A stretch of 64,000 nt of DNA from Rubripirellula sp. (GCA_965216875.1 OZ244207.1:4160001-4224000), one strand, 5' to 3'. Counted from the stretch's first letter, positions 2,668 through 39,883 are shown. The notes: generated by a model not told the origin, from the sequence alone. Program-made: numbers and translations.

Positions 2668-3007
2668 CAGGGAGGCTCCGGCTCTGAAAATTCGCTTGGA
2701 CGTTGAAAGCATGCTTCGGCGATTGACGATCGTTCCGGTGACACGTTTACGCACCGGCGTTTTGGTCGAGAAGTTCCTGGATTATAGAACCGCTCCGTTA
2801 CGAAAACACCGTCCAAGCATGCTCTTTTTTCATGGGTCGCTCTGAGAACCCGTCGCTACGCTCGCAAAAAGGAGATTGGACGACGAACCCAAAGTCCGTC
2901 GCGTCATTTTGCGAAAGAGCCCGCAGAATTCGGCGAAGTTTTCAGCGATTGAGATCAATGCCGGATTCGCGTCGGTGGCGTTTCTTGATCCGGCCTACGT
3001 ACAGATC

Positions 3008-3751
3008 TTAGAGTCCTGCCAACTCTTCGTCGCGGTGGCGCAGTGCCTCAAAGGCCTCGTCAAAATCGGTGGTGTCACAGACCACCAGCCCGTCCCGCAG
3101 AACGATTTGACGGTTAGCCACTCGAGCGACATCGGGATCATGCGTCACCAGAATCACCGTGATCTGATCCCGTTGGTTTAGCTCCATGAACAATTGGATC
3201 ATTTCGCGACTCGTACGTGAGTCGAGATTCCCCGTCGGCTCATCCCCCATCAAGATATTCGGGCAATTGACCAGCGCACGCGCCACTGCAACGCGTTGTT
3301 GCTGGCCACCACTGAGTTGCCCGGGATGATGGTCGAGCCGATCGCCGAGCCCAACGCGCTGAAGCATCTCGACCGCCCGTTGATGCCGTTTCGATGCGCT
3401 GATTCCTGACCGATACAAAAGAGGCAGCTCAACGTTTTCGATCGCCGACGTCCTGTTGAGCAGATTGAAGTTCTGGAAGACGAACCCAATCTGTTCGTTG
3501 CGAATCCGAGCCCGCTGATCGCGATTCATTTTCACGATCTCGTGCCCGTCCAATTGATACGAACCTGACGTCGGCCGATCGAGACAGCCGAGGGTGTTCA
3601 TCAAAGTCGACTTGCCGCTCCCCGATTGGCCGACCAACGCAACGAACTCTCCGCGTTGTATCGACAACGACACGCCGCGCAGCGCATCGACGCGGACTTC
3701 CTCGAGCTGGTAGGACTTGCAAACTTCGCGAACTTCGATCAGCGGCATCAA
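3008..3751 (-). CDS. ABC transporter ATP-binding protein (MacB/LolD-like)
   Basis: Walker A GQSGSGKST, signature LSGGQQQRVA, Walker B-like ILMGDEPTGNLD, VTHD. Confidence 0.92.
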   Translation of the reverse strand: MMPLIEVREVCKSYQLEEVRVDALRGVSLSIQRGEFVALVGQSGSGKSTLMNTLGCLDRPTSGSYQLDGHEIVKMNRDQRARIRNEQIGFVFQNFNLLNRTSAIENVELPLLYRSGISASKRHQRAVEMLQRVGLGDRLDHHPGQLSGGQQQRVAVARALVNCPNILMGDEPTGNLDSRTSREMIQLFMELNQRDQITVILVTHDPDVARVANRQIVLRDGLVVCDTTDFDEAFEALRHRDEELAGL

Positions 3752-3757
3752 TTCTCT

Positions 3758-11285: not shown

Positions 11286-11990
11286 TTAATTGGAATTCGG
11301 TCTCAATCCGGCCGTGGTGGCTCGGCGGACGGGTTGGCGGTTGAGGTAGCCGCGGACCACTTCGTCATGACGAATCCCGAGCTGCGATCGCGAAGACTCC
11401 GTTTTCCCCTCGGGCGCGACCACCAGCACTGCGTTCTGTTGCCAAGTTTGCTGGAAATGCGATGCCGAAATCCGCAGGTTTCCTCGCAGCGGGTCCGCAA
11501 GGAAGACGCATCCCGCCGCAACACCTCGATAGACGACAAAATGGTTCGTCCCGCCGATATCGACAACGACAATCAAAGGCACTTTGCTGCCGGTAAGATC
11601 CGCAAACGAAACCTCGCCGACGCTTGCCAAGAACCCCATCTCCTTTGCCGCATCCGAAACATCAGCCATCGTCAGGCCTTCGCGTTCGCGGTCACGTAGC
11701 TGTGCGCTACTCAACATGTTTTCGACAACGCCAAGCACCATCGGCTCGTTGACATCGTACCCCCAGTAGTACCTTAACAGCGTTGCCAGCGCCGCTGCGC
11801 CACACGAGTAGTCGCGTTGCTGCATCACAATGTTGCGGTTTTTGATTTCGCGCCAACTAAAGACCGGCTTGGCCGCTTGAAAGGCTGAATCACGAACCAC
11901 AGCTCGCGAGCTGACTTGCGCGTGGGCCGAAGTCGATGTGACAAAACCTGCAACGCAAAACGCGATCACCGCAACGGTGGTTTGCCGCAT
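11286..11990 (-). CDS. Secreted stand-alone C39 family cysteine peptidase (FapD-like)
   Basis: Signal peptide ending AHA; QQRDYSCGAAALATLL (Cys), NHFVV (His), LADP (Asp); no ABC domain. Confidence 0.88.
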   Translation of the reverse strand: MRQTTVAVIAFCVAGFVTSTSAHAQVSSRAVVRDSAFQAAKPVFSWREIKNRNIVMQQRDYSCGAAALATLLRYYWGYDVNEPMVLGVVENMLSSAQLRDREREGLTMADVSDAAKEMGFLASVGEVSFADLTGSKVPLIVVVDIGGTNHFVVYRGVAAGCVFLADPLRGNLRISASHFQQTWQQNAVLVVAPEGKTESSRSQLGIRHDEVVRGYLNRQPVRRATTAGLRPNSN

Positions 11991-12010
11991 GCGTTTACTC
12001 GACGGGCTAC

Positions 12011-13270
12011 TCAGTAGGTCCATATCACTCCAGCCTCCATTCCAGGTGCTGAATCAGTCACGCCGAAGTTGACAAACGGCTCCACCAAGCGGCAGTTGTG
12101 TGCAATCGTCGCCGCTAATCGAATTCGTGACGGCTCGATGTCCGATCCAGGCAGATAGACTCCATCGACCTTGGTTTCGGTGACATAGGACCCAAGAAAC
12201 GCCGTGCTCAGCGTGATACGCTCATTGGCCGCAAAACCGACTCCGAGGTTGTAAAAGACCTGGTGCCCGAGATCGACGTTTCGATTCGCAAAACGTTCTC
12301 CGAAGTTGTACGTGTATCCAGCGCCGTAAAAGAGAACCAGCGGGTCCCAAGATCGGATCACCAACAAATCGGCACCCACGTTCCAAACTCCATTTCCCAA
12401 TCCGCTGCTGTTGATCACCAGCGGATTGACGTTGGTGTTTGTTGGTGCCGCGCCTCGCAGCGTCAAAACCGTCGACTTGCTGCGGCAGGAGTCCTGGCAC
12501 AGCAGAAACGTGCCGCCGAAAGTGATGTCGCCAAAACCAAAGTCGCCACCACTGATGTCATCGAACGAATCCGAAATCTCGGTATCTGAAAACCCAACCG
12601 GTGCGTTGATGAACAACTGAGCCCGATCGGTCAGTCCATACCGCACGGCCAAGGGCACGAACCAGTTTCGCTGACGAATTTCCAATCGATCAAGCACCGG
12701 ACCTGGACCACCGAGTGTTGGCCCGTGGTTTTCTTGCAGGCCATAAACCAGTCCCATGTCAAATTGCCATTGGCCCTGACGCAACAGCGGAGAAACACTG
12801 CGCAAAAATTGCGGCGTTCGATCGACTGGGGCTTCCCCATAGTTTTGGATCTGCCGTGCCGTCCGTTGGGCTGCGACGGTGTCGACGGGAACCGCGTTCT
12901 GTACTCCACCTTCCACACTTGCCGGCAATTCGCCAGCTGTTTCGACCGATTCGGAAACACCCTGCGTCAGAACCACGGACGCAACCTGCGCGGCCACGAA
13001 CGTGTCCGTTTGTGGCGAGTTGTTTGCGTCAGACGGAGTGGTTGCTAGAAGTGTCGCTCGAGCTTCGAGTGTCTCGAGCTGAGTCGTTTCCAACTGCGCG
13101 ACACGACCATACGTCAGTCCTAACGTGTGATCGAGTTCTTCAACGTTGTCCGCCTCGGTTGGTAGATGCTCTACCAATTGGGCTTTCGCAGTCACTGGAA
13201 CGGACGAGCAAATCCCGCCCGCCAGCACCACCAATGCGGTCCTCAACCGCCTAACCATTCGACCATCCAT
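12011..13270 (-). CDS. Outer-membrane transporter beta-barrel (FapF / Phenol_MetA_deg-like)
   Basis: Signal peptide, low-complexity N-terminal region, RYGLTDRAQL, GFGDITFG, GLGNG, amphipathic strands, aromatic C-terminus (IWTY). Confidence 0.72.
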   Translation of the reverse strand: MDGRMVRRLRTALVVLAGGICSSVPVTAKAQLVEHLPTEADNVEELDHTLGLTYGRVAQLETTQLETLEARATLLATTPSDANNSPQTDTFVAAQVASVVLTQGVSESVETAGELPASVEGGVQNAVPVDTVAAQRTARQIQNYGEAPVDRTPQFLRSVSPLLRQGQWQFDMGLVYGLQENHGPTLGGPGPVLDRLEIRQRNWFVPLAVRYGLTDRAQLFINAPVGFSDTEISDSFDDISGGDFGFGDITFGGTFLLCQDSCRSKSTVLTLRGAAPTNTNVNPLVINSSGLGNGVWNVGADLLVIRSWDPLVLFYGAGYTYNFGERFANRNVDLGHQVFYNLGVGFAANERITLSTAFLGSYVTETKVDGVYLPGSDIEPSRIRLAATIAHNCRLVEPFVNFGVTDSAPGMEAGVIWTY

Positions 13271-18135: not shown

Positions 18136-19359
18136 CTACTTTTTTAGCGCCGCGACATCAGCCAAATTCTTTAGGTTGCTGAGAACATGATCGGTATCAG
18201 GACCAAAATCGAGCAAACAGGCGATCTCGGTCACTCCGATCGCCTGCAGTTCTCGGCATGTCGCGGCGCATGATTGCACCGTCCCCATCAACGACCGGCC
18301 ACCAATGAACTTGTTCAACATCCACTCGAGCATTTGATCGAGTTCTGCTTTTGGCAAAGTTTCCAAATCCATTGTCTGCCCTTGGCTCACCGCCAATTGC
18401 TTGAGCAGTCCCAGGTTGTCGCGCAGGTATTCGCAGTAGGCTGCACCGGCTTCTTCCCGAACTTGGTCAAACGTTTCGCCCACAAACGTGTGCAGTGTGA
18501 CTGCGATTTCGCCCGGTCCTTGGTGCCCGGCACGGCCTCGTGCTTGCCGGTAGATGTCAACCTTGACCTTCAGTTCACCGATGTCCTGATTGAAAAGGTG
18601 CGTCAGAACGCCAACACCCATTTCGCCGGCGCGGCGAAAGGTCTCGGGATTGCCCGCGGCAGTCAACCAAACTGGCAATTCGGGTTGCACCGGCGTTGGG
18701 TAGGTTCGGACTGAAATCGAATCACCCGTCCCACTTGCGCGTTGCACCTCTTCGCCTCGCCAAAGCCGGCGCACCTGATCGATTCCGTCGTACATGTTGT
18801 CCGATCGATCTTGATACGCCTCAGGAGCGAGCACGAAGTCATCGGGATGCCAACCAGAAGCAAAGGCAAGCTCCACTCGCCCACCTGACAAATTGTCGAC
18901 CACGGCCCATTGCTCAGCGACGCGAAGTGGATCGTTCAGCGGCATCACAACACTGCCCGCTTTGAGTTTCAAGCTCTTGGTTCGACTTGCAATCGCTGCA
19001 TGTAAAACCGCGGGACTGGGATAAAGGCAACCAAACTTTGTGAAATGGCGCTCAGGCAACCAAATCCCATCGAAGCCGTGGCGGTCGGCAAACAAGGCCG
19101 CTTCGGTCAGCAATCGATACTTGTCCCCCTTGGCGTCCGTTTCCTGGTCTCCAAAAAACATCAACGACATTCTTAGGTCGGACGCATCACCATCAGCAAC
19201 CACGTCGGCTTTCGAAGCGTCGCGGATCGCCTGCAAACACTCCTGCTTGGTTCCCGCGATCGTTGTACGCGTCCATCCGCTGGGCACATCGCGATCGATG
19301 GGCCAACACGACGAACGGCCTGTTCCATTTTGAACGACGATGTAACGTTCCGTCTTCAC
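18136..19359 (-). CDS. MbtH-like domain fused to luciferase-like FMN monooxygenase (MupA/Atu3671 type)
   Basis: N-terminal YIVVQN...SCWP...PSGW...KQECL; then IWLPERHF, LYPSPAV, VDNLSGGRV, SGWHPDDF; GTGA overlap with the megasynthase stop. Confidence 0.88.
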   Translation of the reverse strand: MKTERYIVVQNGTGRSSCWPIDRDVPSGWTRTTIAGTKQECLQAIRDASKADVVADGDASDLRMSLMFFGDQETDAKGDKYRLLTEAALFADRHGFDGIWLPERHFTKFGCLYPSPAVLHAAIASRTKSLKLKAGSVVMPLNDPLRVAEQWAVVDNLSGGRVELAFASGWHPDDFVLAPEAYQDRSDNMYDGIDQVRRLWRGEEVQRASGTGDSISVRTYPTPVQPELPVWLTAAGNPETFRRAGEMGVGVLTHLFNQDIGELKVKVDIYRQARGRAGHQGPGEIAVTLHTFVGETFDQVREEAGAAYCEYLRDNLGLLKQLAVSQGQTMDLETLPKAELDQMLEWMLNKFIGGRSLMGTVQSCAATCRELQAIGVTEIACLLDFGPDTDHVLSNLKNLADVAALKK

Positions 19360-22300
19360 GATTCACCCCTCGCGGACTTTGGCAAAGCCTTGGGGTCATG
19401 AAGATGCCCGTACGCCACACAACCGACTTCGATTCCGGCGCCGACCGAGACGAGCAGCCACGTTTCGGATTTCGTTGTCTTGAGAGTCTTACCCAACGCG
19501 ATCGCAATCGTTGACGTAAAGGCATCGCTACCCTGCGAATCGGCTGCGACCACGGCATCAACATCAATGCCAAGGGCTTGCGCAACCACAATCGGGGCAA
19601 TGCGAGTTGGGGTCGTCACCAAGACGCGATTGAATTGTGCAATCGACGTTCCTTCGCGCCCTAGGAAGTCATCAACGGCGTCGATCAAACAAGCGACAAC
19701 GGTCTCCTCGAGATCATCCGACCGTTCGATCTCCAACCTCGCCACGCGCTGGACCAGACGCGTTCGCGTTACGAGTTTGCCTGCGTGCTCTGGATAGGAT
19801 TTAAAGAAGAACTCACCGAAACCCTCGCTCGCGTTGTCGGTCCGTTCAATTGCAATTGCTGACCCACCAATCACAAGCCCGTACTGAGCAAACGACCGAT
19901 CATTGTTCTCAGTTTCCGAGGCGGTGATCAAAGCACGCTTGCCCGCTCCTGTTCTCAGCGACCCGGCAACCAGACTGCACGCAACAAGTGGCCCGCGAGA
20001 GCTGTCGGTCAAGTCGTAGGCAAGCCCTCGGCTATCGCCCTCGGCAACCTCGGCCATCCCCAGCTCTCCCGACACGATCGCCGCAACGGCTGGCTCACTA
20101 AGAAACTCGTCCCGATACACGCCTGCATGAATCAACATGTCTACATCACTGGCTTGCCAGTCGACAGAAGCCAACGACTTGGAAGCCGCGGCGAGGCTGG
20201 TTCGGACAACGGACATTTCAACCGCACTCTCGATGCTGCCATTAAGATTCGGTTCCTGCGTTTCCTTGACCCAAGAGGTCGCCACAATACGAGTCCCGAA
20301 CAATTGATTCGGTAGGGTGATCGGGGCAACCGAACTCGACTTGGTTCCATCAGCAATACGCTCGGGGAGCGAATCGAAGGTATAGAGTGCTGTCCCGATC
20401 GTTTGCCCCGAACCACTGATGGCGAAAACAGCGCGATCCTCTTTCTGTATTCGTCCGCCAAGAATCATGTCCATCACCGCGACCCAGTGGGTCGTGCTGG
20501 CGGTGTTGCCACGATGCGTCAAGTTGTTGACGGTATTCTTGTGATCACACACGGTTGCATCGAAGTGTCGATTGAGTTCCTCAATCGCTCCATCGAGCGT
20601 TGTCGTCGACGTTTGATGCATGATGACGTGTTGAATCTCGTCGGGCCGCCACTTTCGTTGAACCAACGATCGATGCGCGTGGTTGACCGAAAGGTCGAGT
20701 GTCACGGCCGACGCTTTCACAGCATCGGTGTACATGATCGCGCCACCGTGCGGGCGGTCCGTCACTTTCGCAACGCACAAATCATGGTGCCGTCCATCGG
20801 TGTAGAGATCGAGGGACTCAAATCCATAGCCACTGTCGGTCAGTTCTACGATCACCGCCGCACCGGCATCGCCGAGCGTCAAACAAGCCAGACGAGGATC
20901 AAGAAACCCTTCGATTTCCTTTTGGGCCGTTTTGGTTAGGTGCGTGATGTACTCGCCACTGACAATCATCACGCGCGCCGCCTGACCACTGCGCAATTGG
21001 TCTTCTGCAATGGAAAGGGCTGTAAAGAACCCAGCGCAGGCGTTGCATACATCAAACGCCAATGCCGAAGTCGCACCAAGTCGCTGCTTCAGTTTGGAAG
21101 CCGTTGAGGGTTCATAGGAAACTTCGAAGTCCGGCCCGTCGTAGCGAGAGATATTGCATGCGATAAGCGAATCAATCTCGCCCGCTTCGAATCGTGAGTT
21201 TTCGAGACAGCTGATCGCGGCCTTGAATGCGAGATCGATCGCGAACTCCGTTTCCCCGGCAACGTGTCGACTTTGGATTCCCGTCATTCGCTCAAGCGGG
21301 AACTCAAGTTTTTTCTGGCAACCTTCGATGACCTCATCGGTCGTCTCGGTCGCAGGGGGCAGATAAGTGCCTAAACTTTCGACCGTCATCTTCAACGAAG
21401 TCGATCGCGACGGTTCCTGCGCAACAGAATCGATCGTTTGTTGCCCGATCGGCTGGCCCAAGACATCTGGCTCGGCCGCAGCCTGCGTTTCAGCTGCGGG
21501 CCCGTCGGCATCGATCGCGGCAGCCAGCTCGGCGACGGTCTGGAACTGAAACATGCGTTCGGCCGACACTGAAAAGCCTTCACGCATCGCCAGCTCGGCG
21601 GCTTGAAGTGCCTGCAGTGATGCGCCACCCAACTCGAAAAAGTTGTCGTGAATGCCTACCGAAGGGACATTCAAGACCTTGCACCAAATCGCTGCGATCA
21701 CCTTTTCCGTTGGTGTCGATGGCGGAACGGCCTCGGTGGCTTCAACTGCATCACTGGGATCTGGCAAGCGGGTTGCATCCAGTTTGCCGCTCACGGTCAA
21801 CGGAAATGCGTCCACACCGACAAACGCTTTGGGGACCATGTAGCAAGGCAAATGACTTGCGACATGCTTGCGAAGATCGGCTTGGAAGGAAGCGTCATCG
21901 GCATCGCTGCTGCGAGGCCGATCGGCGAGGTAGTAACCGACTAAGCCGATTCCCGAGTGATACAACACGTGAGCGTCTTTGATTGACTTGCCCGCGCGCA
22001 TCACGGCCGCGATCTCACCCGGCTCGATTCGATTTCCGTCCACCTTGACTTGGTCATCGATGCGGCCGAGGAATTCAACCTCACCCGTTGTCGTCCAACG
22101 CGCGCGATCGCCCGATCGATACATCGAGGCATCAAAAGCATCGCTAAAGGGGTTGGGCACAAAGACGTCCGCGGTCAACTCGGGTCGCCCGAAGTATTCA
22201 AGCGCCAATCCGGGACCTGAAATACAAAGTTCACCTGGAACGCCGATGGGCATCGGTTCAAGATGCCCGTCCACAATCTCGATTCGTACGTTGGACACCG

Positions 22301-25300
22301 GTTGTCCCAACGAAGGCTCTGTTCCGTCACCCGAGCATTGGTGAGTCGACGCCCAGACGGTCGTTTCAGTTGGGCCGTAGGCGTTGAACATTCGCCGAGG
22401 GTTTCCGGCACGTTCGATCCATTTGTCGACCAGCTGCGCCGAACAGGCTTCGCCCGCAGAAATGACGGTATGCAAAGCGGGCAAGTCGTCACTCGAAAGC
22501 GCCGACAAAACCGACGGAGGCAACGTCGCGACGTTGACATTTGAACGGCGCAATTGGTCTGTGATTTCACCAGTTGACGACCGAACGACCCCCGGGTCGA
22601 TCACATAAAGCGTCGCTCCGGCATGAAGTGCCAGAATGATTTCGAAAACGGACGCGTCAAAGTGCAACGAACTGAACTGCAGACATTTGTCGCTCGCCTG
22701 AATACCAAATGTCTTGCGTTGGGCCACGGCCATGTTGGCGATTCCGCGGTGCGTCAGGACGGTTCCCTTGGGTTTCCCAGTCGATCCAGAGGTGTAGATC
22801 AGGTAGGCCAAGTCATCGTGCGTGACCTTCGGCAAAGCAACGCGTTCGGAGTTCCCGAAACGAGCTTCGTCACCACCAATCGACACCACGACGCGATACC
22901 CACCGAGCGCAAGTTCATCGATCTTGTTTTGATCTTGGTCGGTCAAAACCACGTCAGGCGAAGCGTCGGCAAAGATCGCCTGCAATCGCGATCGAGGGTG
23001 TGCCGGGTCAAGCGGAACGTATGCAGCGCCCGCTCGCCAAGCAGCCATGATTCCGATGATCGATTCAACGCCTCGACCAGCCAACAACCCGACGATGTCC
23101 CCCTTGCGGGTTCCGGCCGAGAGAAGCCGAGCCGCAACGCTGTCGACACGTTGATCGAGTTGGCGATAAGAGATTGCCGCCGATTCCGATTCGAGTGCGA
23201 TTGCATCTGGCGTTTGCTTTGCCCATTGCCGAAGCAATGCGTCACCCGCATGATCGGGATCAAAATCGACGTGCGTATCGTTCCACCGCGTGATGCACTC
23301 CTGCTGTTCCAACGAAAGCAGCGGCGCGGTGCGAATCGGAACATCGGGATTGATGGCGATCGCATCAATCAACGTATTGAAGCTCTGCGAAAGACTCTCG
23401 ATCGCTTCGTCGCTAAACAAATCGGTGTTGTAGCGAAATGTCAGCTTCAATTCGTCTTCGAGTTCGAATACGATCAAGGTCAAATCAAAGGGAGCGCCGC
23501 GCTGTTCCATCAACAACGGCTTGAGCCTCAAACGGTCGCTCGACTTACCCGGCGCGAAGTGCGATTCTTTGAGGTGCCGCGGCTTGTCCCAAATGAACAT
23601 CGTCTGGATCAGCGGCGATCGACTCGTATCGCGGAGCGGCCGGACCTTCTCGACCAGTTTGGCAAACGGCAACGCTTGGTGCTGCAACGCGTCGAGTACT
23701 TCGCGTTGACTGTCACGAAGCACATCACGGAACGTCGGCGAACCGTTGATCCGGGTTCGCAAAACAAGCTGGTTCAGGAAATAGCCGACGATCCCTTCCC
23801 ATTCCGAACGTCCGCGACTCGCCGAAACCGTTCCAACGAGCAGATCATCCTGGCCACAGATGCGTGACAAAAACGTTTGGTACGCGGCAAGCACAATCGT
23901 GAACAGTGTCGTTCGTTCTTCAACCGCAACATCGCGAAGCGATTCGACAACCTCCGTCGGGACCGTCCACTCCAACGATTTTCCGTTGAACGTCTGCTCG
24001 GCAGGACGCTGGTAGGTCGTCGGCAACTCCAATACATGCGGTGCACCTTCGAGTTTGCGTTGCCAAAACCGCCAAAGCTGCTCGCCCTCTTCACTAGTGT
24101 CGAGCCCGCGCTCCCAATCGACGTAGGCGTCGTAGGTCGTTGGCAGTGTCCCCAAATCGATCGTCCCGCCACCAACGATCATTGCGTAAAGGTCAAGCAA
24201 CTCCTGGATCAACACGTCCATCGACCACAGGTCGGCCGCAATATGGTGCATCGCGATCGACAAGACGTCTCCCTTGCGACATCGCAAGAGCGTGAAACGA
24301 ATGACCGGACCGTCCTGGAGATCAAAGGGGGCGTCGGCTTGATCGCGAATCCAATCGACCATGCGGCTCCGCTTCCAATCCTGGCAGTCCTTTTCGGCAA
24401 TCTCGACATCGATCGAATCGGACAAAACGCGAACCGCGGCATCACCATCGAGTCGATAGCGAGTTCGCAAGACGGGATGGCGTTTGACGAGCGAGCGACA
24501 TGCCTTGGTCATCGCGTCGCGGTCGATCGTGCGCGACGTTTGTGCTGCAAAGGCAAAGTTGTACGCGGGGCCCTCAGGAGCACGCTGGTGAATCAACCAC
24601 AAAGCTGTCTGACCGACCGACATCGGACCAAGCACACGCTCGCCCGTCGACGGTGACCGGCGAGTGGCGATGTCGGTGGTTTGCGGTTGCCGTTGCGACG
24701 AGGGGTCGGTTGCCAAATCCGACGCTACCCGGTCGGCAACACTCACTTCCTGACGGTCTCCGCGAGGAACAATCGAGCGAGGGTCGACTTCTTGGGAATC
24801 GAGCGCAATGCTCATCAATTGCGTGAGCGACTTGCCCTCAAGGAACGCGACCATCGGCACCGACAACTCAAGCTCCGACGAAAGTCGGTTCTTCAATTGA
24901 ATCGCCATCAACGAATCGATACCGAGATTGGACACCGGCTGGTCGATGTCGATCTCAGCCGGATCATGCTCAAGCACTGCGGCAACGGCGTGACGAAAGT
25001 AGTCTTCGAGCGCTGCTCGGCGACCGTCAACGTTGCTGCTTTGTTGAAACGCTTCAACCCACTTGGACAGGTCGACTCGCGTTTTCCCGGCTCTCTGAGC
25101 TGAACGGTTCCCCAATGATCGTGATGCGGATTGCGAACTCGTTGCTTTCTGAGGCCTCGAATCATCGCCTACACCGGTCGCAACCAAGACCGCTTGGCCT
25201 TGTTGGACGCGCGCCAACGAAGCATCAGGAGCGAGGATGGCGGGGTCGCGATACCCGCATCCATTCAACAGTTGCAGCCAAGCTTTTGAATCAATCAGAG

Positions 25301-28300
25301 GATAGTTCGGCCTCAACTCCGAATCTTCGAATCGCCACCACCCTTCGGTCAGTCCAAAGATCAAATCGAGCATCGGCTCGGGGCGGACGCCTTCGAGTGC
25401 CACCAACAAACCGCCCGACCTGAGCAATCGATTTGCGTTGGACAAGGTCCGTTTCAAGTCACTCGTCGCGTGAAAAACGTTTGCGGCGATCACGATGTCA
25501 AAAGCGTCTTCTTCGAATCCTTGCGACTCGATGGTCGATTCGATATCGAGCACTTGAAACTCGAGCGAGCCCGAGGCTTCTTGAGAAGATTCGAAGCGTC
25601 CCGACGCTTCCGCCACGAGCAGCGGCGAGACATCGGTGAACACATAGGATTCAACCTTATCTTTGATCGCGGGCCAAACGAAACTTGTCGTTCCGCCCGT
25701 GCCGCCTCCGATTTCAAGCACGCGTATTGGGCGCGATGGATCGTGCGCCAATTGCGTGTCGATCGCCGCGACCACCGCGTCGGCAACCGTCTGATTGCAA
25801 ACCTGGGCGACCGGTGAGGCGCGGTAAAGCGATTCCAAATCGGACGCATCTCCGCCAGGGAAAAGGACCTCCAGAGGATCGGTCTGGCCAGCGAGAACGG
25901 ATGCAAGTTTGCTGCCGCAACGAGCCACCAGTTTGAGTTCCCGAGTCACGGAGGGATGCTTTTGCCTCAGTGGTGCAACTGCGCCACACAACTGGGACGC
26001 CTCAATTCGCTGGTGCCCCACAACGCGCCAAGACCTTGTGGATTGATGCTCGATGGGCTCCAGCCATCGTTGGTCAGCCAAAATCTCGCATATGCGCTCG
26101 GCCAAACGCAAATGTTTCGCAGCGATTCGTCCCACTGCCACTTCGTTTGCAAGATCCACAACTTGGCCGTCGCGATCCGCAAGTCCGAGCGTCTCGAACG
26201 CCTTGTACATGTAACGCGCAACCAATTGATCGACTTCTGGCTTTGCAGCAGCGTAAGACTCGAGTTCCTCGGCCAAACCGTGACAGTCTCGATCGCGTTG
26301 CCTATCGGTCACCGACGAGGCAATGGTGTCGGTATCGATGCTCGGCGCGGCATCGTTCTTCGCGTCATCCAACCAGTAGCTTCGCGGTTGGAAGGGGTAC
26401 CCTGGAAGCCGGAAATTCGAAGGTTCCGACCGGTCGCGACTTCCGTTGACTTCATCCCAATCGAGTTCGACACCTCGGCAGAAAAGCTCTCCAACCGCAG
26501 TCAACACACAACGCAAATCGTCTTGACCGCGAACGAGTGTTTGTAAGTAGTCGATAGGGATGTTGCTATTGAGTTGCCCCAAGGTGCAAAGTGTCGGATG
26601 CGGTCCGATCTCGATGGCAACATCACACTTTGACTTGGCCAATGACTCGAGGGCGCGGACATATTGAACTGGCTCGCGACTGTGGCGTGTCCAGTAATTC
26701 GGCGAACAGACTTCCGAAGTCACCTGCTGGCCGGTGAGTGACGAGATATACGTCTTCTCTGGCAACGACAACTTGGCTGACTCGATCACACCTTTGATAG
26801 GCTCGAGCACCGGGTCCATCAGCGAGGAATGAAACGCTTGATTGATTCGCAAAGGCCGTGTTGTGGTTCCCGCTGCCGCCAACGTGTCTTGCAACATGGC
26901 GATTCCCGACGAGGCACCCGAAACCACGATGTGCTCGGGAGCATCGATCGCTGCGATCGACAGGTCCTGTCCAAGTTCATTGATTCGATGCTGCACCGAC
27001 TCGGCCGAATCAAAGACAACGGTCATCGCACCTGCTTGGCTAAGCAGCGAGACGTGACGGGCACGCACTGCCGTCAATCGCAATGCATCCTCCCAGGTCA
27101 TCACACCCGAGATCGCCGCCGCCGCGAACTCGCCCATGCTATGGCCCAGCACGGTCGTCGCACCAGCGCCGAATTGCTCGAACGTCTTGGCGAGCGCAAG
27201 TTGCAACGAAAACAAACTCGTTTGTGCAGCCGGTCCGTTTAGCAATTCGGCCACGGCCCCATTGGTCTCGGGCGACGAAGCGATCAGATCGGTGATCGAA
27301 TGATCGAACTCGTCCCTCAGAAGTTCATCACAGCAATCGATCCACTTCCGAAACGTTGGGAGATGGCGATACAGCATCTGTCCCATGCCGACGTGCTGTC
27401 CACCTTGACCGGTAAACAGCATCGCGATCGAAACCGCTCGGTCAGAGAGGGCCGTTGCGGCGCAAACATGTTCGCTTGCCTTGCCCTCGGCAAACTGCGT
27501 CAACCGCTCCGCAACGGTTTCTTTCGAACTTCCGACAACGGCGACACGATGACGTAGACTCGACCGTTGATATTGGGTCGCCTGTGCGATCACGTCGAGC
27601 TCGCCCGCACTTTGCCGCAATACGTCACCATGCTGGCGAGCCAAATCTGCTAGGCCCTCGACGTGGCCCGACGACAACGTGATTAGACTTGGAAGTGTGC
27701 CGGTTGGACTCGCTTTCGGTGCTCGCTTTGGTCTTTCGCCTTGGCCAACAATCACATGAGCGTTGGTGCCTCCGAATCCAAACGAACTCACTGCCGCCCG
27801 GCGACGCGTTGAGTCGTCCCATCTCGCATTGGTTGTCGAAATCGACAGACGCGATTCATCGAGATCGATGTGTGGATTCAATACGGCAAGGTTCGGCTGC
27901 GAAACCACCTCGCCATGTTCCAGCTCCAACACAACTTTCAAAAGACTGGCCAATCCTGCCGCCGACTCGAGATGACCGAGGTTTGCTTTGACTGCACCTA
28001 AGAAACAGTCGTTGGCCTGCTGTCCGCGTCGGCCATAGACTTGGTTCAGGCTGCGAAATTCGATCGGATCGCCAAGGATCGTTCCCGTGCCGTGCGCTTC
28101 GATTCTGGAAACGGCAGACGGTTCTAGCGCGGCATCAGCAAGTGCGTTTCGATACAGCTGCTGCTGAGCATCACCACTCGGGGCGGTGATACCATTGGTC
28201 AAGCCATCCTGATTAATCGCCGTTCCTTCGATGACGGCACGAATGAGGTCGCCGTCACGCCGTGCCGCCTCAAGCGGCTTCAACACAACCGCAATGCACC

Positions 28301-31118
28301 CTTCGCCGCGACCATATCCGTTGGCACTCGCATCAAAGGTCTTACACAAACCATCGGGCGAGAGCATTTCGCCATCGGTCAGCGTTTCCGAAACTTCGGG
28401 GCTCAGGATTAAGTTGACGCCGGCCACAACGGCCGACTCGCAATCGCCGGACTGAATGGCACGAACGGCTTGATGCAGCGCAACCAACGACGAGGAACAA
28501 GCGGTGTCGATCGACAAACTTGGCCCGCGCAGATCGAAGTGATACGAAAGACGGTGCGCCGCCATGCTTGCCGCGTTGCCGGTCATCGAATAGGTCGTGT
28601 GCCGAGCACCCGAGGCGAGGATCAGCCGCTCGTAGTCGCGATTGGCAATGCCAACGAACACTCCCATGTTGCGGCCACCAACCGAGTTGGGGTCGAGCGT
28701 CGCATCCTCCAGCGATCGCCAACAAGTTTCCAACAGCAATCGATGCTGTGGGTCCATTTGTTTGGCTTCACGAGGCGAGATCGAAAAGAGCGCTGCGTCA
28801 AACGTTGAGACGTCTTCCATCCAACCGGCACGTTGGATGTTGGATTGGCCATTGATCGCCTCGCGACGAGCCGCGGGAGGATCCGCAATGACGTTGCGCC
28901 CTTGCACAAGCAGCTGCCAAAAGTCGTCGAGCGATTCGCATCGGGGCAAGCGACACGCCGCGCCAACAATTGCGATGGCTCCGCTTCGTCGCTGTGCATC
29001 CGCGTTAGACGCCCCAACCACTTCAGGCTGACGTTCGCCATGATCGATTTGTTGATCGCTTGCTTCGGCACTGAGCATCTGCGCGACGGCCGTGATCGTT
29101 GGCGCTTCGTACATCAACGTCGCAGGTATGGGACGCCCGAGATGACTCTCAAGTTCAGCGACCATCTGCACGGCACTGACCGAATCGATTCCGTAACCGG
29201 TGAACGGGCGCGTGACATCGATCTCGTCAGTCGAAAGCCCAAGATGTTTGGCGATCCGCTCGACCAACCACGCTGAGACGTCGGCGGCGGCGACCTTGCG
29301 GGGAGCGTCCAGAGCCGGCCCAAAAGTCAGCGCGTCCTCTTCCTTCTCAGCAGGCCCACGGGATGCAACGCCGTCAAAGGTTTTCGCGAGGTACAAATCG
29401 CGTGTTGCGAGTCGTTTGACCTTTCCGCTTGATGTCTTGGGAAGGGCTCGTTTCGCAATGAGTACCACCCGGTAGGGCTGAACGTCAAACGCCTCGACGA
29501 CTCTCTCGCGGATCGCCGTGATGATTTGCTCGCGTTCCTTCTGGGAACACCGTTCGATCTCCTGCACGATCACTAACTGCGAAGCGTCTTCAACTTCGAT
29601 CTCGAACGCGACGGAAGCGTTGGGGACAAGTTTCGGATGCACGTCGGCGAAACTGGCTTCCACGTCCGACGGCTGAAGGTTGCGCCCGCGAACAATGATC
29701 AATTCTTTCAATCGCCCCGTCACATACAGCTGACCATCGCGCAGGTAGCCGAGGTCGCCCGTTCGCAAGAAACGCTCCCTGCGTCCTTGGATCTCGACTG
29801 CAAAGGTTTCTTCTGAATCGGCTCGTTGCCAGTAACCTTGGCTCACGTGCGCGCCGCTAACGCAAACTTCCCCGACTTCGCCATCAGGTAGCTCACGAAG
29901 CGTTTCGGGATCGGCGCAGACCACCACCTGGTCGCCCGCAGGAGCGCCGCAACTGACCACTTCACCCGTCGCCACAACTCCCGAGGGTGCCGTCGAGTCG
30001 GTGCGATGTTCCCCGCGCGGTCCGCCGGTCACCAACAACGTTGCTTCAGCAAGTCCGTAGCAGGGAAAGAACGCTGAGGACTGAAAACCTATCGACGAAA
30101 ACCGATCCGCAAACCGCTGCAACGAATTCTCACGAACCGGTTCGGCGCCCGTGAACGCAAGCGTCCAATGACTCAGATCCAAACCTTCAAGGTCGGCATC
30201 CCGGATTCGATCCACACAGGTATCGAATGCAAAGTTAGGACCACCACTAACGCTCGCCTTGTACTTGCTGATCGCTTGCAACCAGCGAACCGGCTTCTGA
30301 ATGAAGGATGCAGGCGGCATCACGTGTGTACAGCGTCCCGCGTACAGCACTTGCAACAAGCCACCAATCAATCCCATGTCATGATAAGGTGGCAACCAAG
30401 TCACACTCCAATGATCACGATAGCGTTCGATTTCAAACGCCTCGTAGATCATTTGCAAGTTGGCAAGAAGATTGCCATGCGATAGACAAACGCCCTTGGG
30501 ATCGCTGGTGGAACCGGACGTGTACTGCAACACCGCCAACGAGTCGGGTGACAGGTTGGGTGGCGTCCAATTGGCGGTGTTGCCCGCAAGCGTGTTGCTG
30601 CCTCTCGCCTGGTCAACGGTCGGTGCGTTGGCGAGATCGTCAACGTTGAACCACTTCAATCGGCCAAGCTGTGGTGATGTCTTCAGTATCTGATCGCGAC
30701 GCTCAAAGATCGATTGATCGACCAGAGCCACCGTCGCCCCGGAGTCGCTGACGATGTGATCAAGGCGTTCGTCAGCGCGGCGTGGACGAGGCGGGTAGGC
30801 GGTCACCACTGTCATACCGCTGTAGAGCGTGCCGAACAGCGCTCGCAGGTAGGCTTCGCCAGGCGGGCATAGAATGACGGCGCGCGGCAGCAGGTCGTCG
30901 TCGAGATTCAGCGGATTCGTTCGCAGCTGTTTCGAGATGTTGACCGCCGCGCGATCAAGGTCGCCATACCGCAACCATTTGTCTTCGACCCCATCGCCCT
31001 GAAAGAACGTGTATCCTTTTTCGGCGCAGGACCCTCGGCCGCGATCGATCAGCAGATCGACCACCGTCGAAACGGCGGCAATCGATGGGGGGGGACGGTC
31101 GTTCACAGACTTCGACAT
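19356..31118 (-). CDS. Hybrid FAAL-PKS-NRPS megasynthase: FAAL-ACP-KS-AT-MT-ACP-C-A-PCP-KASIII/OleA-KASIII/OleA*
   Basis: FAAL QYTSGSTSDPKG and WLPPYHDMGLIG; ACP GIDSV; KS DTACSSS/HGTGT/GHLE; AT GHSMG, AFHS; MT LEIGGGTG; ACP GIDSL; C HHIAAD; A YTSGSTGKPKG, YGPTE; PCP GGASL; thiolase-fold EPSTAS..DVCNAC, HQ, GN. Start placed at ATG 31118. Confidence 0.93.
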   Translation of the reverse strand: MSKSVNDRPPPSIAAVSTVVDLLIDRGRGSCAEKGYTFFQGDGVEDKWLRYGDLDRAAVNISKQLRTNPLNLDDDLLPRAVILCPPGEAYLRALFGTLYSGMTVVTAYPPRPRRADERLDHIVSDSGATVALVDQSIFERRDQILKTSPQLGRLKWFNVDDLANAPTVDQARGSNTLAGNTANWTPPNLSPDSLAVLQYTSGSTSDPKGVCLSHGNLLANLQMIYEAFEIERYRDHWSVTWLPPYHDMGLIGGLLQVLYAGRCTHVMPPASFIQKPVRWLQAISKYKASVSGGPNFAFDTCVDRIRDADLEGLDLSHWTLAFTGAEPVRENSLQRFADRFSSIGFQSSAFFPCYGLAEATLLVTGGPRGEHRTDSTAPSGVVATGEVVSCGAPAGDQVVVCADPETLRELPDGEVGEVCVSGAHVSQGYWQRADSEETFAVEIQGRRERFLRTGDLGYLRDGQLYVTGRLKELIIVRGRNLQPSDVEASFADVHPKLVPNASVAFEIEVEDASQLVIVQEIERCSQKEREQIITAIRERVVEAFDVQPYRVVLIAKRALPKTSSGKVKRLATRDLYLAKTFDGVASRGPAEKEEDALTFGPALDAPRKVAAADVSAWLVERIAKHLGLSTDEIDVTRPFTGYGIDSVSAVQMVAELESHLGRPIPATLMYEAPTITAVAQMLSAEASDQQIDHGERQPEVVGASNADAQRRSGAIAIVGAACRLPRCESLDDFWQLLVQGRNVIADPPAARREAINGQSNIQRAGWMEDVSTFDAALFSISPREAKQMDPQHRLLLETCWRSLEDATLDPNSVGGRNMGVFVGIANRDYERLILASGARHTTYSMTGNAASMAAHRLSYHFDLRGPSLSIDTACSSSLVALHQAVRAIQSGDCESAVVAGVNLILSPEVSETLTDGEMLSPDGLCKTFDASANGYGRGEGCIAVVLKPLEAARRDGDLIRAVIEGTAINQDGLTNGITAPSGDAQQQLYRNALADAALEPSAVSRIEAHGTGTILGDPIEFRSLNQVYGRRGQQANDCFLGAVKANLGHLESAAGLASLLKVVLELEHGEVVSQPNLAVLNPHIDLDESRLSISTTNARWDDSTRRRAAVSSFGFGGTNAHVIVGQGERPKRAPKASPTGTLPSLITLSSGHVEGLADLARQHGDVLRQSAGELDVIAQATQYQRSSLRHRVAVVGSSKETVAERLTQFAEGKASEHVCAATALSDRAVSIAMLFTGQGGQHVGMGQMLYRHLPTFRKWIDCCDELLRDEFDHSITDLIASSPETNGAVAELLNGPAAQTSLFSLQLALAKTFEQFGAGATTVLGHSMGEFAAAAISGVMTWEDALRLTAVRARHVSLLSQAGAMTVVFDSAESVQHRINELGQDLSIAAIDAPEHIVVSGASSGIAMLQDTLAAAGTTTRPLRINQAFHSSLMDPVLEPIKGVIESAKLSLPEKTYISSLTGQQVTSEVCSPNYWTRHSREPVQYVRALESLAKSKCDVAIEIGPHPTLCTLGQLNSNIPIDYLQTLVRGQDDLRCVLTAVGELFCRGVELDWDEVNGSRDRSEPSNFRLPGYPFQPRSYWLDDAKNDAAPSIDTDTIASSVTDRQRDRDCHGLAEELESYAAAKPEVDQLVARYMYKAFETLGLADRDGQVVDLANEVAVGRIAAKHLRLAERICEILADQRWLEPIEHQSTRSWRVVGHQRIEASQLCGAVAPLRQKHPSVTRELKLVARCGSKLASVLAGQTDPLEVLFPGGDASDLESLYRASPVAQVCNQTVADAVVAAIDTQLAHDPSRPIRVLEIGGGTGGTTSFVWPAIKDKVESYVFTDVSPLLVAEASGRFESSQEASGSLEFQVLDIESTIESQGFEEDAFDIVIAANVFHATSDLKRTLSNANRLLRSGGLLVALEGVRPEPMLDLIFGLTEGWWRFEDSELRPNYPLIDSKAWLQLLNGCGYRDPAILAPDASLARVQQGQAVLVATGVGDDSRPQKATSSQSASRSLGNRSAQRAGKTRVDLSKWVEAFQQSSNVDGRRAALEDYFRHAVAAVLEHDPAEIDIDQPVSNLGIDSLMAIQLKNRLSSELELSVPMVAFLEGKSLTQLMSIALDSQEVDPRSIVPRGDRQEVSVADRVASDLATDPSSQRQPQTTDIATRRSPSTGERVLGPMSVGQTALWLIHQRAPEGPAYNFAFAAQTSRTIDRDAMTKACRSLVKRHPVLRTRYRLDGDAAVRVLSDSIDVEIAEKDCQDWKRSRMVDWIRDQADAPFDLQDGPVIRFTLLRCRKGDVLSIAMHHIAADLWSMDVLIQELLDLYAMIVGGGTIDLGTLPTTYDAYVDWERGLDTSEEGEQLWRFWQRKLEGAPHVLELPTTYQRPAEQTFNGKSLEWTVPTEVVESLRDVAVEERTTLFTIVLAAYQTFLSRICGQDDLLVGTVSASRGRSEWEGIVGYFLNQLVLRTRINGSPTFRDVLRDSQREVLDALQHQALPFAKLVEKVRPLRDTSRSPLIQTMFIWDKPRHLKESHFAPGKSSDRLRLKPLLMEQRGAPFDLTLIVFELEDELKLTFRYNTDLFSDEAIESLSQSFNTLIDAIAINPDVPIRTAPLLSLEQQECITRWNDTHVDFDPDHAGDALLRQWAKQTPDAIALESESAAISYRQLDQRVDSVAARLLSAGTRKGDIVGLLAGRGVESIIGIMAAWRAGAAYVPLDPAHPRSRLQAIFADASPDVVLTDQDQNKIDELALGGYRVVVSIGGDEARFGNSERVALPKVTHDDLAYLIYTSGSTGKPKGTVLTHRGIANMAVAQRKTFGIQASDKCLQFSSLHFDASVFEIILALHAGATLYVIDPGVVRSSTGEITDQLRRSNVNVATLPPSVLSALSSDDLPALHTVISAGEACSAQLVDKWIERAGNPRRMFNAYGPTETTVWASTHQCSGDGTEPSLGQPVSNVRIEIVDGHLEPMPIGVPGELCISGPGLALEYFGRPELTADVFVPNPFSDAFDASMYRSGDRARWTTTGEVEFLGRIDDQVKVDGNRIEPGEIAAVMRAGKSIKDAHVLYHSGIGLVGYYLADRPRSSDADDASFQADLRKHVASHLPCYMVPKAFVGVDAFPLTVSGKLDATRLPDPSDAVEATEAVPPSTPTEKVIAAIWCKVLNVPSVGIHDNFFELGGASLQALQAAELAMREGFSVSAERMFQFQTVAELAAAIDADGPAAETQAAAEPDVLGQPIGQQTIDSVAQEPSRSTSLKMTVESLGTYLPPATETTDEVIEGCQKKLEFPLERMTGIQSRHVAGETEFAIDLAFKAAISCLENSRFEAGEIDSLIACNISRYDGPDFEVSYEPSTASKLKQRLGATSALAFDVCNACAGFFTALSIAEDQLRSGQAARVMIVSGEYITHLTKTAQKEIEGFLDPRLACLTLGDAGAAVIVELTDSGYGFESLDLYTDGRHHDLCVAKVTDRPHGGAIMYTDAVKASAVTLDLSVNHAHRSLVQRKWRPDEIQHVIMHQTSTTTLDGAIEELNRHFDATVCDHKNTVNNLTHRGNTASTTHWVAVMDMILGGRIQKEDRAVFAISGSGQTIGTALYTFDSLPERIADGTKSSSVAPITLPNQLFGTRIVATSWVKETQEPNLNGSIESAVEMSVVRTSLAAASKSLASVDWQASDVDMLIHAGVYRDEFLSEPAVAAIVSGELGMAEVAEGDSRGLAYDLTDSSRGPLVACSLVAGSLRTGAGKRALITASETENNDRSFAQYGLVIGGSAIAIERTDNASEGFGEFFFKSYPEHAGKLVTRTRLVQRVARLEIERSDDLEETVVACLIDAVDDFLGREGTSIAQFNRVLVTTPTRIAPIVVAQALGIDVDAVVAADSQGSDAFTSTIAIALGKTLKTTKSETWLLVSVGAGIEVGCVAYGHLHDPKALPKSARGES

Positions 31119-31216
31119 CGTCCCATTTTGGGGGACGCAATTTTCGGGCAAGAACCAGTTGAACCGACAAGAATAATTCAATTCTTGAGGCTTTTCCAAA
31201 GAAGGTAAATCGCCGC

Positions 31217-32338
31217 ATGCCGCCGACACCAAAGCCACGCTTCGCAGTCACCGGTGCAGCGGGGTTTATTGGCCGTCAACTCGTCCAATCCCTCGTCGCC
31301 GACAACCACGAAGTGACCGCTATCGTGCGCTCAGAGAAACCGTCAAGCAAGGCTTGGGGGGAACAAGTGCGCGTTGTCGAAGCCGACGTTGAAAACCCCG
31401 GTTCGCTGCGAGGTCTTTTCGACGACGCCGAGGTGGTCGTACACCTTGCCGGCCGTACGCTGGCAAAAAACCGCAAACAATTTGACCGGGTGAACGTCGA
31501 GGGCACGCGGAACGTCGCTGAAAGTTGTGCTCGATCCGATTCGCCTCCGCGACTTGTGTTGGTTTCTTCCCTCGCCGCAGGCGGCCCCAAAAAACTCACC
31601 GCAGGCGGTCCCAAAGAGCTCGCCCCGGCAGGTCGGAAGGCTGCGTCGGGCGGTCGGAAGGCTGCGTCGGGCGGTCGGAAGGCTGCGCTGGGCGGTCGGA
31701 AGGCTGCGCCGGGCGGTCGGAAGGCTACGCCGGGCGAACCCGTCTCACACTACGGCAGCAGCAAACGATTGGCCGAGGAGACGCTCGAACGATTCTCCGG
31801 GAAACTACCGATGCGAATCCTGAGACCGCCGACCGTTTTCGGAGAAAACGATCCCTACATGTTGGGCTTGTACAAAACGGCCAAACGCGGCTTTGTCGTT
31901 TTACCCGGCCGCCATGACTTTCGCTATTCGTTGATTCACGTCGACGATTTGGCCGACGCAATCATTCACCTGTCGAACTTCGAGGGTGCCGCCACAAAAG
32001 CGATTGGGATCGAGACCATCGATGTTGCCCAACCCGACCCGATGACCTTTTGCGAAATCGGCACGATCATCGCCAACCATTTTGATCGACACGGCGTTCG
32101 CCCGTTTCACATCCCGAGTTCAGTCTGCTGGTCGATCGCTGGCGTCAACTCGTTGCTTGCCAAACTCTTTCCGTACCGGCCACTGTTGAATGTCGACAAG
32201 ATACGCGAAGGTCTCGCCGGCAACTGGATCTGCAACACGCATCTCTTGACCAGCGAACTCGGATTTCTGTTCCCCCACTCGCTGCAACAACGAATCGAAC
32301 AAACAGCCGACGGCTACAAACGCAAGGGTTGGCTGTAA
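31217..32338 (+). CDS. NAD-dependent epimerase/dehydratase (extended SDR, 3beta-HSD/OleD-like)
   Basis: TGAAGFIG, HLAG, VSSLAA, YGSSK, LRPPTVFG, IHVDDLA. Confidence 0.88.
   Translation: MPPTPKPRFAVTGAAGFIGRQLVQSLVADNHEVTAIVRSEKPSSKAWGEQVRVVEADVENPGSLRGLFDDAEVVVHLAGRTLAKNRKQFDRVNVEGTRNVAESCARSDSPPRLVLVSSLAAGGPKKLTAGGPKELAPAGRKAASGGRKAASGGRKAALGGRKAAPGGRKATPGEPVSHYGSSKRLAEETLERFSGKLPMRILRPPTVFGENDPYMLGLYKTAKRGFVVLPGRHDFRYSLIHVDDLADAIIHLSNFEGAATKAIGIETIDVAQPDPMTFCEIGTIIANHFDRHGVRPFHIPSSVCWSIAGVNSLLAKLFPYRPLLNVDKIREGLAGNWICNTHLLTSELGFLFPHSLQQRIEQTADGYKRKGWL
31631..31735 (+). repeat. In-frame 21-bp VNTR, 5 copies
   Basis: Unit GGTCGGAAGGCTGCGTCGGGC (minor variants) encoding GRKA(A/T)xG. Confidence 0.92.
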
Positions 32339-39739: not shown

Positions 39740-39883
39740 CGGTTCCTGAGCAGCAGTCTCGACCGACTCCTTCACCGAACCGTCCTCAAACGTCTGTATC
39801 AACGATCACCCCCTGGTCCAACTACAGACATGTGTTTTCTAATCTCCCGCGACAATTGACTCGAATTACGGAGCCATTCCCAC

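Follow-up and report, generated by a model that had tools for sequence, protein, structure and literature searches.

We have analysed a 64,000-nucleotide stretch of DNA from Rubripirellula sp. (GCA_965216875.1 OZ244207.1:4160001-4224000), called the window below, which carries on its minus strand an open reading frame (ORF) for a hybrid megasynthase, part polyketide synthase (PKS) and part nonribosomal peptide synthetase (NRPS). Pfam assignments together with motifs give its domain order as FAAL-ACP-KS-AT-cMT-ACP-C-A-PCP-D1-D2 (Table 1), D1 and D2 being the two terminal domains with which this report is concerned and which together are called the didomain. The attachment serine of the PCP lies within a GGAS motif (residues 3204-3207). 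Among the 23 Pfam families found on the megasynthase there is neither a thioesterase (TE) nor a reductase (R) domain, and Pfam detected no ketoreductase (KR), dehydratase (DH) or enoylreductase (ER) domain in the PKS module. Judging by the database copy of the protein (P0005; 3920 aa), which is 40 residues shorter, translation probably starts at Met41, at about 31118.

Table 1. Positions of the features discussed in the text; those without a locus or contig prefix are counted from the first letter of the window.
Feature	Position	Strand	Residues or size	Basis or remark
Hybrid PKS-NRPS megasynthase ORF	19356..31238	-	3960 aa from GTG	uninterrupted frame
FAAL loading domain	29376..31118	-		PF00501 in two stretches; N-terminal boundary approximate
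DIP2-like C-terminal subdomain of FAAL		-	512-621	PF23024
ACP1	29073..29270	-	657-722	PF00550
KS + linker + AT	26574..28979	-	KS 754-1117, AT 1274-1555	Pfam
C-methyltransferase (cMT)	25377..25751	-	about 1830-1954	PF08242 and related methyltransferase models
ACP2	24795..25019	-	2074-2148	PF23297, PF00550
Condensation domain (C)	23292..24626	-	2205-2649	PF00668, 3.2e-92
Adenylation domain (A)	21783..23234	-	2669-3152	PF00501, PF13193
PCP	21504..21701	-		third PP-binding stretch; boundaries approximate
D1, predicted catalytic LstA/NltA-type KAS-III domain	20364..21389	-	3284-3625	Pfam, NCBIfam, alignment, tree
YEPSTAS (D1)	21116-21096	-		Glu3376 at 21113-21111
AFDVCNACAG (D1)	21059-21030	-		Cys3401 at 21038-21036
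LTLGDAG (D1)	20882-20862	-		
MHQTS (D1)	20624-20607	-		His3541 at 20618-20616
HRGNTAS (D1)	20516-20496	-		Asn3578 at 20507-20505
D1-D2 linker	20298..20363	-	~22 residues	model pLDDT dips around model residues 360-400
D2, predicted non-catalytic LstB/NltB-type KAS-III domain	19359..20297	-	3648-3960	NCBIfam, profile, tree
LSEPAVAA (D2)	20102-20079	-		Glu3715-Pro3716 at 20096-20091
YDLTDSSRG (D2)	20018-19992	-		Ser3747 at 20000-19998
MbtH-like domain + FMN-dependent luciferase-like monooxygenase, MupA/Atu3671 family	18136..19359	-	407 aa	TIGR04020
Extended SDR (NAD epimerase / 3-beta-HSD type) reductase	31217..32338	+, divergent	373 aa	
Peptidase C39 domain protein	11286-12023	-		outside megasynthase unit, link to unit not evident
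ABC-2 type transporter	36971-38608	-		outside megasynthase unit, link to unit not evident
Radical SAM protein	38654-39802	-		outside megasynthase unit, link to unit not evident
NF006720 (OleA-type) gene of source genome	G000:C1:2748139-2749173			451 bits; between glutamine amidotransferase gene and flagellar genes
OleC-like ligase of source genome	G000:C1:2588226-2589866			42% identical to that of L065
Best OleD-model match of source genome	G000:C1:1729232-1730224			331 bits, below cut-off 580
Gene row of L065 (and of L068): alpha/beta-hydrolase, NltC/OleC-like AMP ligase, 3-beta-HSD SDR, DUF6629, 491-aa protein, standalone D1D2, P450, PPTase, APS kinase	L065:4109-14787			491-aa protein without Pfam match

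A first-pass annotation, made from the sequence alone, had placed two thiolase-fold domains after the last PCP instead of a thioesterase, and scans with Pfam and NCBIfam agree with it. D1 matches ACP_syn_III (1.7e-19, residues 3395-3482) and ACP_syn_III_C (4e-11, residues 3527-3620). D2 by itself stays under the Pfam cut-offs (E 0.007 and 0.041); it matches NCBIfam models of ketoacyl-ACP synthase III (KAS-III; NF006720, 3.6e-10), and a profile built from 24 D2 sequences aligns with FabH chains from position 15 to position 299 of its 302 (2ebd, E 9.5e-25). Such low E-values assign both domains to the thiolase fold far beyond chance.

Every motif quoted in that annotation was recovered in the translated ORF at its expected place. 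D1 has the full Cys-His-Asn set attributed to it (Cys3401, His3541 and Asn3578) together with the Glu-Pro motif at Glu3376. D2, as was also claimed, retains a Glu-Pro pair (Glu3715-Pro3716) and has no cysteine; when it is aligned to D1, the Cys, His and Asn positions are taken by Ser3747, Thr3875 and Phe3907. The two domains follow the PCP in one uninterrupted ORF, so that the pair is indeed a single polypeptide fused to an NRPS.

Next, we examined how widespread this terminus is. A region-restricted search gave 40 megasynthases with a D1-D2 terminus, and an exhaustive HMMER scan over 1.84 billion representatives brought 271 proteins with E<=1e-30. Among 196 matching proteins that were retrieved, 148 have a complete didomain, namely that of the window and 147 others, some of them near-duplicates such as the members of one Mycobacterium cluster. 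The didomain stands at the very C-terminus in all of these 148 but one (P0018); by length, 65 are standalone proteins of about 670 aa and the rest are fused to larger proteins. Species-representative genomes contain 492 confirmed didomain stretches, and all counts per locus given below refer to the best 80 of them. These belong to Actinomycetota (27), Chloroflexota (19), Planctomycetota (16), Bacteroidota (9), Lentisphaerota (2), Verrucomicrobiota, Gemmatimonadota and Pseudomonadota (1 each), with four unplaced. The didomain continues the upstream reading frame in 67 of the 80 loci, from at least five phyla, and is standalone in the other 13, which include all nine loci of Bacteroidota. Ktedonobacter racemifer DSM 44963, Roseimaritima ulvae, Mycolicibacter engbaekii and Ferruginibacter paludis are cultured carriers, and none of the didomain homologues found bears a product-specific name. 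Evidently, the D1-D2 architecture is not rare, only uncharacterised.

Alignment of the 148 didomains revealed different constraints on the two halves. The Cys, His and Asn of D1 are each present in all 148, and its Glu in 145. In D2 the Glu and the Pro are both invariant (148/148) while the Cys position never holds a cysteine (Ala in 67, Gly in 40, Ser in 23, others in the rest), the His position is mostly Pro (132) and the Asn position mostly Phe (96). Across the 80 loci, identity to the window is 51-74% for D1 and 26-46% for D2. A first half conserved far more than the second is what one would expect if one half is catalytic and the other auxiliary.

Searching for the closest relatives among single proteins, we found that outside the family no named standalone protein matches the D2 profile better than a 286-aa Nocardia "hypothetical protein" (P0244, E 2e-21), which ranks ahead of FabH among proteins of similar length. 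In the GTDB family to which Mycolicibacter belongs, 61 of 301 sampled genomes encode P0244-like proteins. At two of three places examined (L098 and L099) there is an operon for a KAS-III protein (411-417 aa), a truncated KAS-III protein (297-300 aa), an AMP-binding protein (553-567 aa) and a short-chain dehydrogenase/reductase (SDR) of 3-beta-HSD type; at the third (L100) no more than the KAS-III pair and an AMP-binding protein of greater length could be recognised. The operon of L099 is followed by a gene for a 1036-aa adenylation and PCP protein (L099:12019-15129, plus strand), reminiscent of the lipstatin NRPS that adds an amino acid side chain. The gene order at L098 and L099 is the nltABCD/lstABCD arrangement, as given in the accessible part of the nocardiolactone preprint (bioRxiv 10.1101/856955), and the proteins were therefore used as NltA- and NltB-type references. 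D1 is 31% identical to the NltA-type protein over 353 aa (E 4e-46, 150 bits; the best FabH chain reaches 77.8 bits), and D2 is 29% identical to the NltB-type protein over 261 aa (E 8e-23).

A maximum-likelihood tree was calculated with IQ-TREE from 56 rows: D1 and D2 of the window, 16 further D1/D2 pairs picked for diversity from the 80 loci, three NltA-type, four NltB-type and five solo proteins, seven FabH and three KAS-III proteins of the window's genome; L044 and L046 were left out of the alignment due to frame problems. D1 rows form one clade (support 95/99), sister to the NltA-type proteins (98/97). D2 rows also form one clade (100/99), inside a larger one with the NltB-type and solo proteins (100/100). 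FabH makes up a separate clade (100/99) with both D1 and D2 outside it, which answers the check, proposed in the first-pass annotation, for clustering with ordinary FabH. The genome's own NF006720 member branches away from D1 and D2.

The solo proteins of this tree (P0223, P0226, P0232, P0235 and P0238) have about 293 aa and resemble D2 with E about 1e-60. They group with the NltB-type proteins, outside the clade of fused D2 domains.

The label "OleA/LstAB-like" given to the pair at the outset holds for its second part, the affinity to Lst/Nlt proteins, and fails for OleA proper. Against NF006720 (OleA-type, PRK09258; cut-off 285) D1 scores 114.8 and D2 39.7 bits, and against TIGR00747 (FabH) D1 scores 125.6 bits with the cut-off at 292. 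By these curated thresholds, the domains are therefore members of neither the FabH nor the OleA (NF006720) family.

An AlphaFold2 model of the 686-residue didomain, based on a 35-sequence alignment, has a mean pLDDT of 89.6 and a pTM of 0.93, with low confidence limited to the ends and the inter-domain linker. From these values D1 and D2 are predicted to stand in a fixed, defined mutual arrangement. Foldseek and VIA-align returned matches on the D1 half only, with TM about 0.9; PqsC was aligned to D1 at Z about 38.

These results lead us to regard the megasynthase terminus, with high confidence, as a fused, NRPS-terminal pseudo-heterodimer of LstAB/NltAB type. The conserved triad of D1 and the invariant Glu-Pro of D2 fit a catalytic, A-like half and a B-like half that donates a glutamate. 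In E. coli FabH, Phe87, just before the conserved loop proline, protrudes into the pocket of the partner subunit, and for this reason the glutamate of D2 would be expected to serve D1. Published precedent invoked in the first-pass annotation is borne out by the accessible portions of the papers concerned: LstB E60A is inactive (PMC12141560), E57A and E57Q in NltB abolish condensation, and in the OleA homodimer a glutamate of the partner chain enters the active site and deprotonates the alpha-carbon (bioRxiv 10.1101/856955).

The following course of release can be envisaged. D1 and D2 would pack like a KAS-III dimer, so placing Glu3715 of D2 in the active site of D1, in the way that OleA receives Glu117 from the partner chain, in a role modelled on that proposed for the essential LstB E60 and NltB E57. 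An acyl thioester would be loaded on Cys3401 and its alpha-carbon deprotonated by the glutamate; the resulting carbanion would then attack the thioester of the PCP-bound N-(2-methyl-3-oxoacyl)-aminoacyl chain, which would depart through C-C bond formation as a 2-alkyl-3-oxo-4-amido acid. Tailoring might follow, by the SDR in many relatives, by the MbtH-tethered luciferase-like monooxygenase in the window and by OleC/OleB-like enzymes in some Bacteroidota. That the didomain frees its chain by a non-decarboxylative Claisen condensation with the D2 glutamate as base appears to us somewhat better than an even chance. That it represents a new, widespread class of NRPS/PKS termination, with an intermolecular Claisen condensation that joins the chain head-to-head to a second fatty acyl thioester, we put forward tentatively, rating it slightly short of even.

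A number of observations weigh against the assignment to the Lst/Nlt type and against the release reaction proposed with it. Some concern the domains themselves. The pseudo-heterodimer model does not account for the Glu3376-Pro pair that D1 keeps in 145 of 148 cases; in a D1-D2 pseudo-dimer the D1 glutamate should point into the dead pocket of D2, and the aligned NltA-type protein keeps this glutamate too. The top NCBIfam match of D1 is a FabH subfamily (NF006829, 144.6 bits, under its cut-off of 249). In profile searches of PDB chains, FabH outscores OleA of X. campestris with both D1 (117.6 vs 77 bits) and D2 (90.5 vs 71.9 bits), and in structural comparisons with D1 the enzymes OleA, PqsD and FabH are tied at Z about 40, so that subfamilies are not separated. 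The Nlt-type references were set by nltABCD-like synteny and are not the characterised LstA/B or NltA/B proteins, and the tree covers only 16 of the 80 locus pairs besides that of the window.

Other points of this kind concern the surroundings. A gene of NltC type lies near the didomain in only two of the 80 loci, and the window holds no OleC/NltC- or OleB-like gene. The OleC-like, OleD-like and NF006720-type genes of the source genome are dispersed, megabases from the megasynthase (Table 1). Finally, the SDR of the window matches the NltD-type protein in its N-terminal Rossmann part only (38% over 121 aa).

An intramolecular Dieckmann reaction is the most serious alternative to the intermolecular condensation. 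With the chain on Cys3401, the glutamate would deprotonate C2 of the 2-methyl-3-oxoacyl group and C2 would attack the thioester, giving a tetramic acid (a 3-acyl-3-methyl-pyrrolidine-2,4-dione) with no need of a second substrate. The layout of the window suits this well: KS-AT-cMT-ACP without KR, DH and ER would deliver a beta-ketoacyl-aminoacyl thioester, the classic tetramate precursor, and no OleC/OleB-type gene or obvious second acyl-activating gene is there. The terminal ketosynthase of the fungal tenuazonic acid synthetase reportedly performs such a Dieckmann-type release. Several relatives share the non-reducing layout, e.g. P0030 (FAAL-ACP-KS-AT-ACP-C-A-PCP-D1D2).

Comparison of what precedes the didomain in other loci, however, speaks against this reaction. 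A condensation domain is found before it in 66 and an adenylation domain in 73 of the 80 loci, so that C-A-PCP-D1D2 is a constant core under differing upstream chemistries. Further upstream there is a fully reducing DH-ER-KR module in P0029 (Mycobacterium), FAAL-ACP only in P0021, nothing in P0048 and a second NRPS module in P0109; in all four a didomain of about 40-50% identity thus follows modules that provide no acidic C2. Luciferase-like monooxygenase domains are embedded in P0020 and P0022. Read from this domain order, the constant substrate of the didomain is an N-acylated aminoacyl thioester and its 3-oxo group is dispensable, which disfavours Dieckmann cyclisation as the general reaction. 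Moreover, double methylation by the cMT would leave no proton on C2. Directly after D2 an extended SDR is found in 11 of the 80 loci and a classical SDR in at least three more, and such reductases suit a beta-keto acid product better than a tetramate.

Two loci of Bacteroidota, L065 (Ferruginibacter paludis CECT 8366) and L068 (a related metagenome-assembled genome), argue in the same direction, having a standalone didomain in a gene row of OleB/C/D-like type (Table 1). The AMP ligase of these rows is 35% identical to the NltC-type protein over 96-99% of its length (E about 1e-103), their 3-beta-HSD SDR is 33% identical to the NltD-type protein, and an alpha/beta-hydrolase lies alongside. In L065 and L068, genes for FAAL, a luciferase-like monooxygenase and ACP-KS run divergent to the row. 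From its gene content this looks like an ole/beta-lactone-type cluster with the fused didomain in OleA's place. For the megasynthase of the window, we consider the Dieckmann reaction unlikely, at roughly one chance in five.

The context clustering was polluted by antisense ORFs in high-GC loci, and only clusters outside the megasynthases were followed. We also compared the ten "code" positions of 72 adenylation domains of the family, using GrsA numbering, with the fourth position off by one. The codes vary by sub-group, DILxLGxIWK and DVWxxSLIDK being found beside another in the window; we take the first to be Gly-like, the second Ser-like and that of the window aromatic-like. This hints, if weakly, that the amino acid at the terminus probably varies among members of the didomain family.

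A FabH-like decarboxylative extension, in which D1 would join the N-acyl-aminoacyl chain with malonyl-CoA or malonyl-ACP to a gamma-amido-beta-keto thioester and D2 would be a structural partner only, seems to us improbable, clearly more so than the Dieckmann reaction. It would draw on a Cys-His-Asn triad identical to that of FabH and on raw profile scores, which are highest for FabH chains and models. Yet the tree places both domains, well supported, apart from the FabH clade, and neither of them reaches the FabH cut-offs. Moreover, the Glu-Pro of D2, invariant in all 148 didomains, occupies the base position that defines non-decarboxylative enzymes, and a mere structural partner would not be expected to keep it.

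Still less probable is acyl transfer without formation of a C-C bond, by which the PCP-bound chain would be moved to an alcohol, an amine or water. Acyltransferases of thiolase fold are known, some of them KAS-III-like, and in 12 of the 80 loci, mostly in Chloroflexota, the gene after the didomain encodes a type II thioesterase, which shows hydrolytic editing to occur in didomain clusters. The KAS-III-like acyltransferases, however, reportedly have an altered triad, unlike D1 with its invariant His and Asn, and the nearest relatives of the didomain are the Claisen-condensing Lst/Nlt-type proteins. It is extremely improbable that the fusion is an artefact of assembly, a possibility that the first-pass annotation had raised, or one of annotation or a decaying gene, since 3960 codons run uninterrupted in a genome of 8.26 Mb assembled as a single contig (8,264,643 bases), the same fusion recurs in 67 of the 80 related loci in at least five phyla, and the catalytic residues are invariant.

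Among genes adjoining the megasynthase, that of the luciferase-like monooxygenase has a GTG start that shares bases with the TGA stop of the megasynthase (GTGA), an indication that the two are translationally coupled. Its product is a member of TIGR04020 (464.6 bits, cut-off 244.45). The MbtH-like domain fused at its N-terminus suggests docking of the enzyme on the adenylation domain and action upon the carrier-bound intermediate. A homologue lies directly downstream of D2 in ten loci of the planctomycete group. In Chloroflexota relatives, a monooxygenase of the same kind is embedded inside the megasynthase.

The divergent extended SDR may belong to the megasynthase cluster, and an SDR occupies the same divergent position in L005. 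It was considered as a candidate OleD and rejected (52-65 bits, cut-off 580), and is left here as a generic reductase.

Known ways of release from an assembly line are hydrolysis, macrocyclisation, reduction and Dieckmann cyclisation. If the proposed reaction is true, a C-C bond-forming exit that joins the chain head-to-head to a second acyl chain would be added to them, and engineers would have a portable chain-fusing unit. Its products would be 2-alkyl-3-oxo-4-amido acids, undescribed branched lipo-amino metabolites, and, with OleC/OleD-like partners, amino-acid-derived beta-lactones. The full-text literature, with most subscription journals outside coverage, yielded no description of a fused or assembly-line-terminal LstAB-like pair. 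In their accessible parts, PMC10262491 and PMC11837247 have no word on a fused NRPS-terminal pair, the LstB of PMC13192835 is a DarB-type enzyme unrelated to it, and PMC7064751 mentions oleBC fusions only. The family is large, unstudied and present in cultured strains, so that the question lends itself to direct test, and genomes can readily be mined with the D1-D2 signature.

Several known systems resemble the didomain in part; the papers cited for them below are quoted from their accessible portions. PqsB/PqsC of Pseudomonas aeruginosa likewise pairs a catalytic with a dead subunit in a heterodimer of KAS-III fold. The match of PqsC chains to D1 (E 1.6e-8) is much weaker than that of the Nlt-type proteins, and PqsC is said to lack the Asn and to perform a decarboxylative reaction on 2-aminobenzoylacetate. 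OleA of Xanthomonas campestris has a Glu-Cys-His-Asn set like that of D1 (E3376, C3401, H3541, N3578), but it is a homodimer with two active sites. The pyrone-forming KAS-III enzymes CorB and MxnB, distant matches of the D2 profile (E about 1e-7), join two thioester-bound chains at the end of an assembly line; in contrast to the didomain they are stand-alone homodimers, use a beta-ketoacyl partner and lactonise (PMC12304814).

The closest likeness is that to LstA/LstB of Streptomyces toxytricini and NltA/NltB of Nocardia brasiliensis. In the former, one half has Cys-His-Asn, the other is triad-less with an essential glutamate, and the reaction is a non-decarboxylative head-to-head Claisen condensation. 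Neither LstA nor LstB is soluble without the other; C128 and H271 of LstA are needed for activity and its N305 for a soluble complex (PMC12141560). NltB is truncated, without the triad, needs Glu57 and is active only when paired (bioRxiv 10.1101/856955). D1 clusters with A-type and D2 with B-type proteins of this kind, as defined by synteny; their identity to these is only about 30%. LstA/LstB, however, are two proteins which use two acyl-CoAs and share their operon with genes for a beta-lactone synthetase and a reductase, and NltA/NltB are encoded by separate genes of the nltABCD operon, use acyl-CoA substrates and have no NRPS. In the window a single chain follows the PCP and a beta-lactone synthetase is absent. 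The accessible texts report no experimental structure of the LstAB/NltAB heterodimer and describe its subunits as hard to purify apart (PMC12141560, bioRxiv 10.1101/856955); the single-chain didomain would offer a soluble model of it with fixed stoichiometry.

Because D1 and D2 are fused after a PCP, one of their substrates should be carrier-bound, and for this NocG is a precedent, as it condenses carrier-bound thioesters without decarboxylation (PMC9486936). NocG and PpyS, which were compared with D1 by description, are single-domain homodimers with no assembly-line fusion and no dead partner. Their Glu/Cys/His/Asn sets are tabulated together with that of OleA (PMC9486936, Table 1), and in the set of NocG, E100/C125/H275/N304, the spacing of 25 residues from Glu to Cys is the same as in D1.

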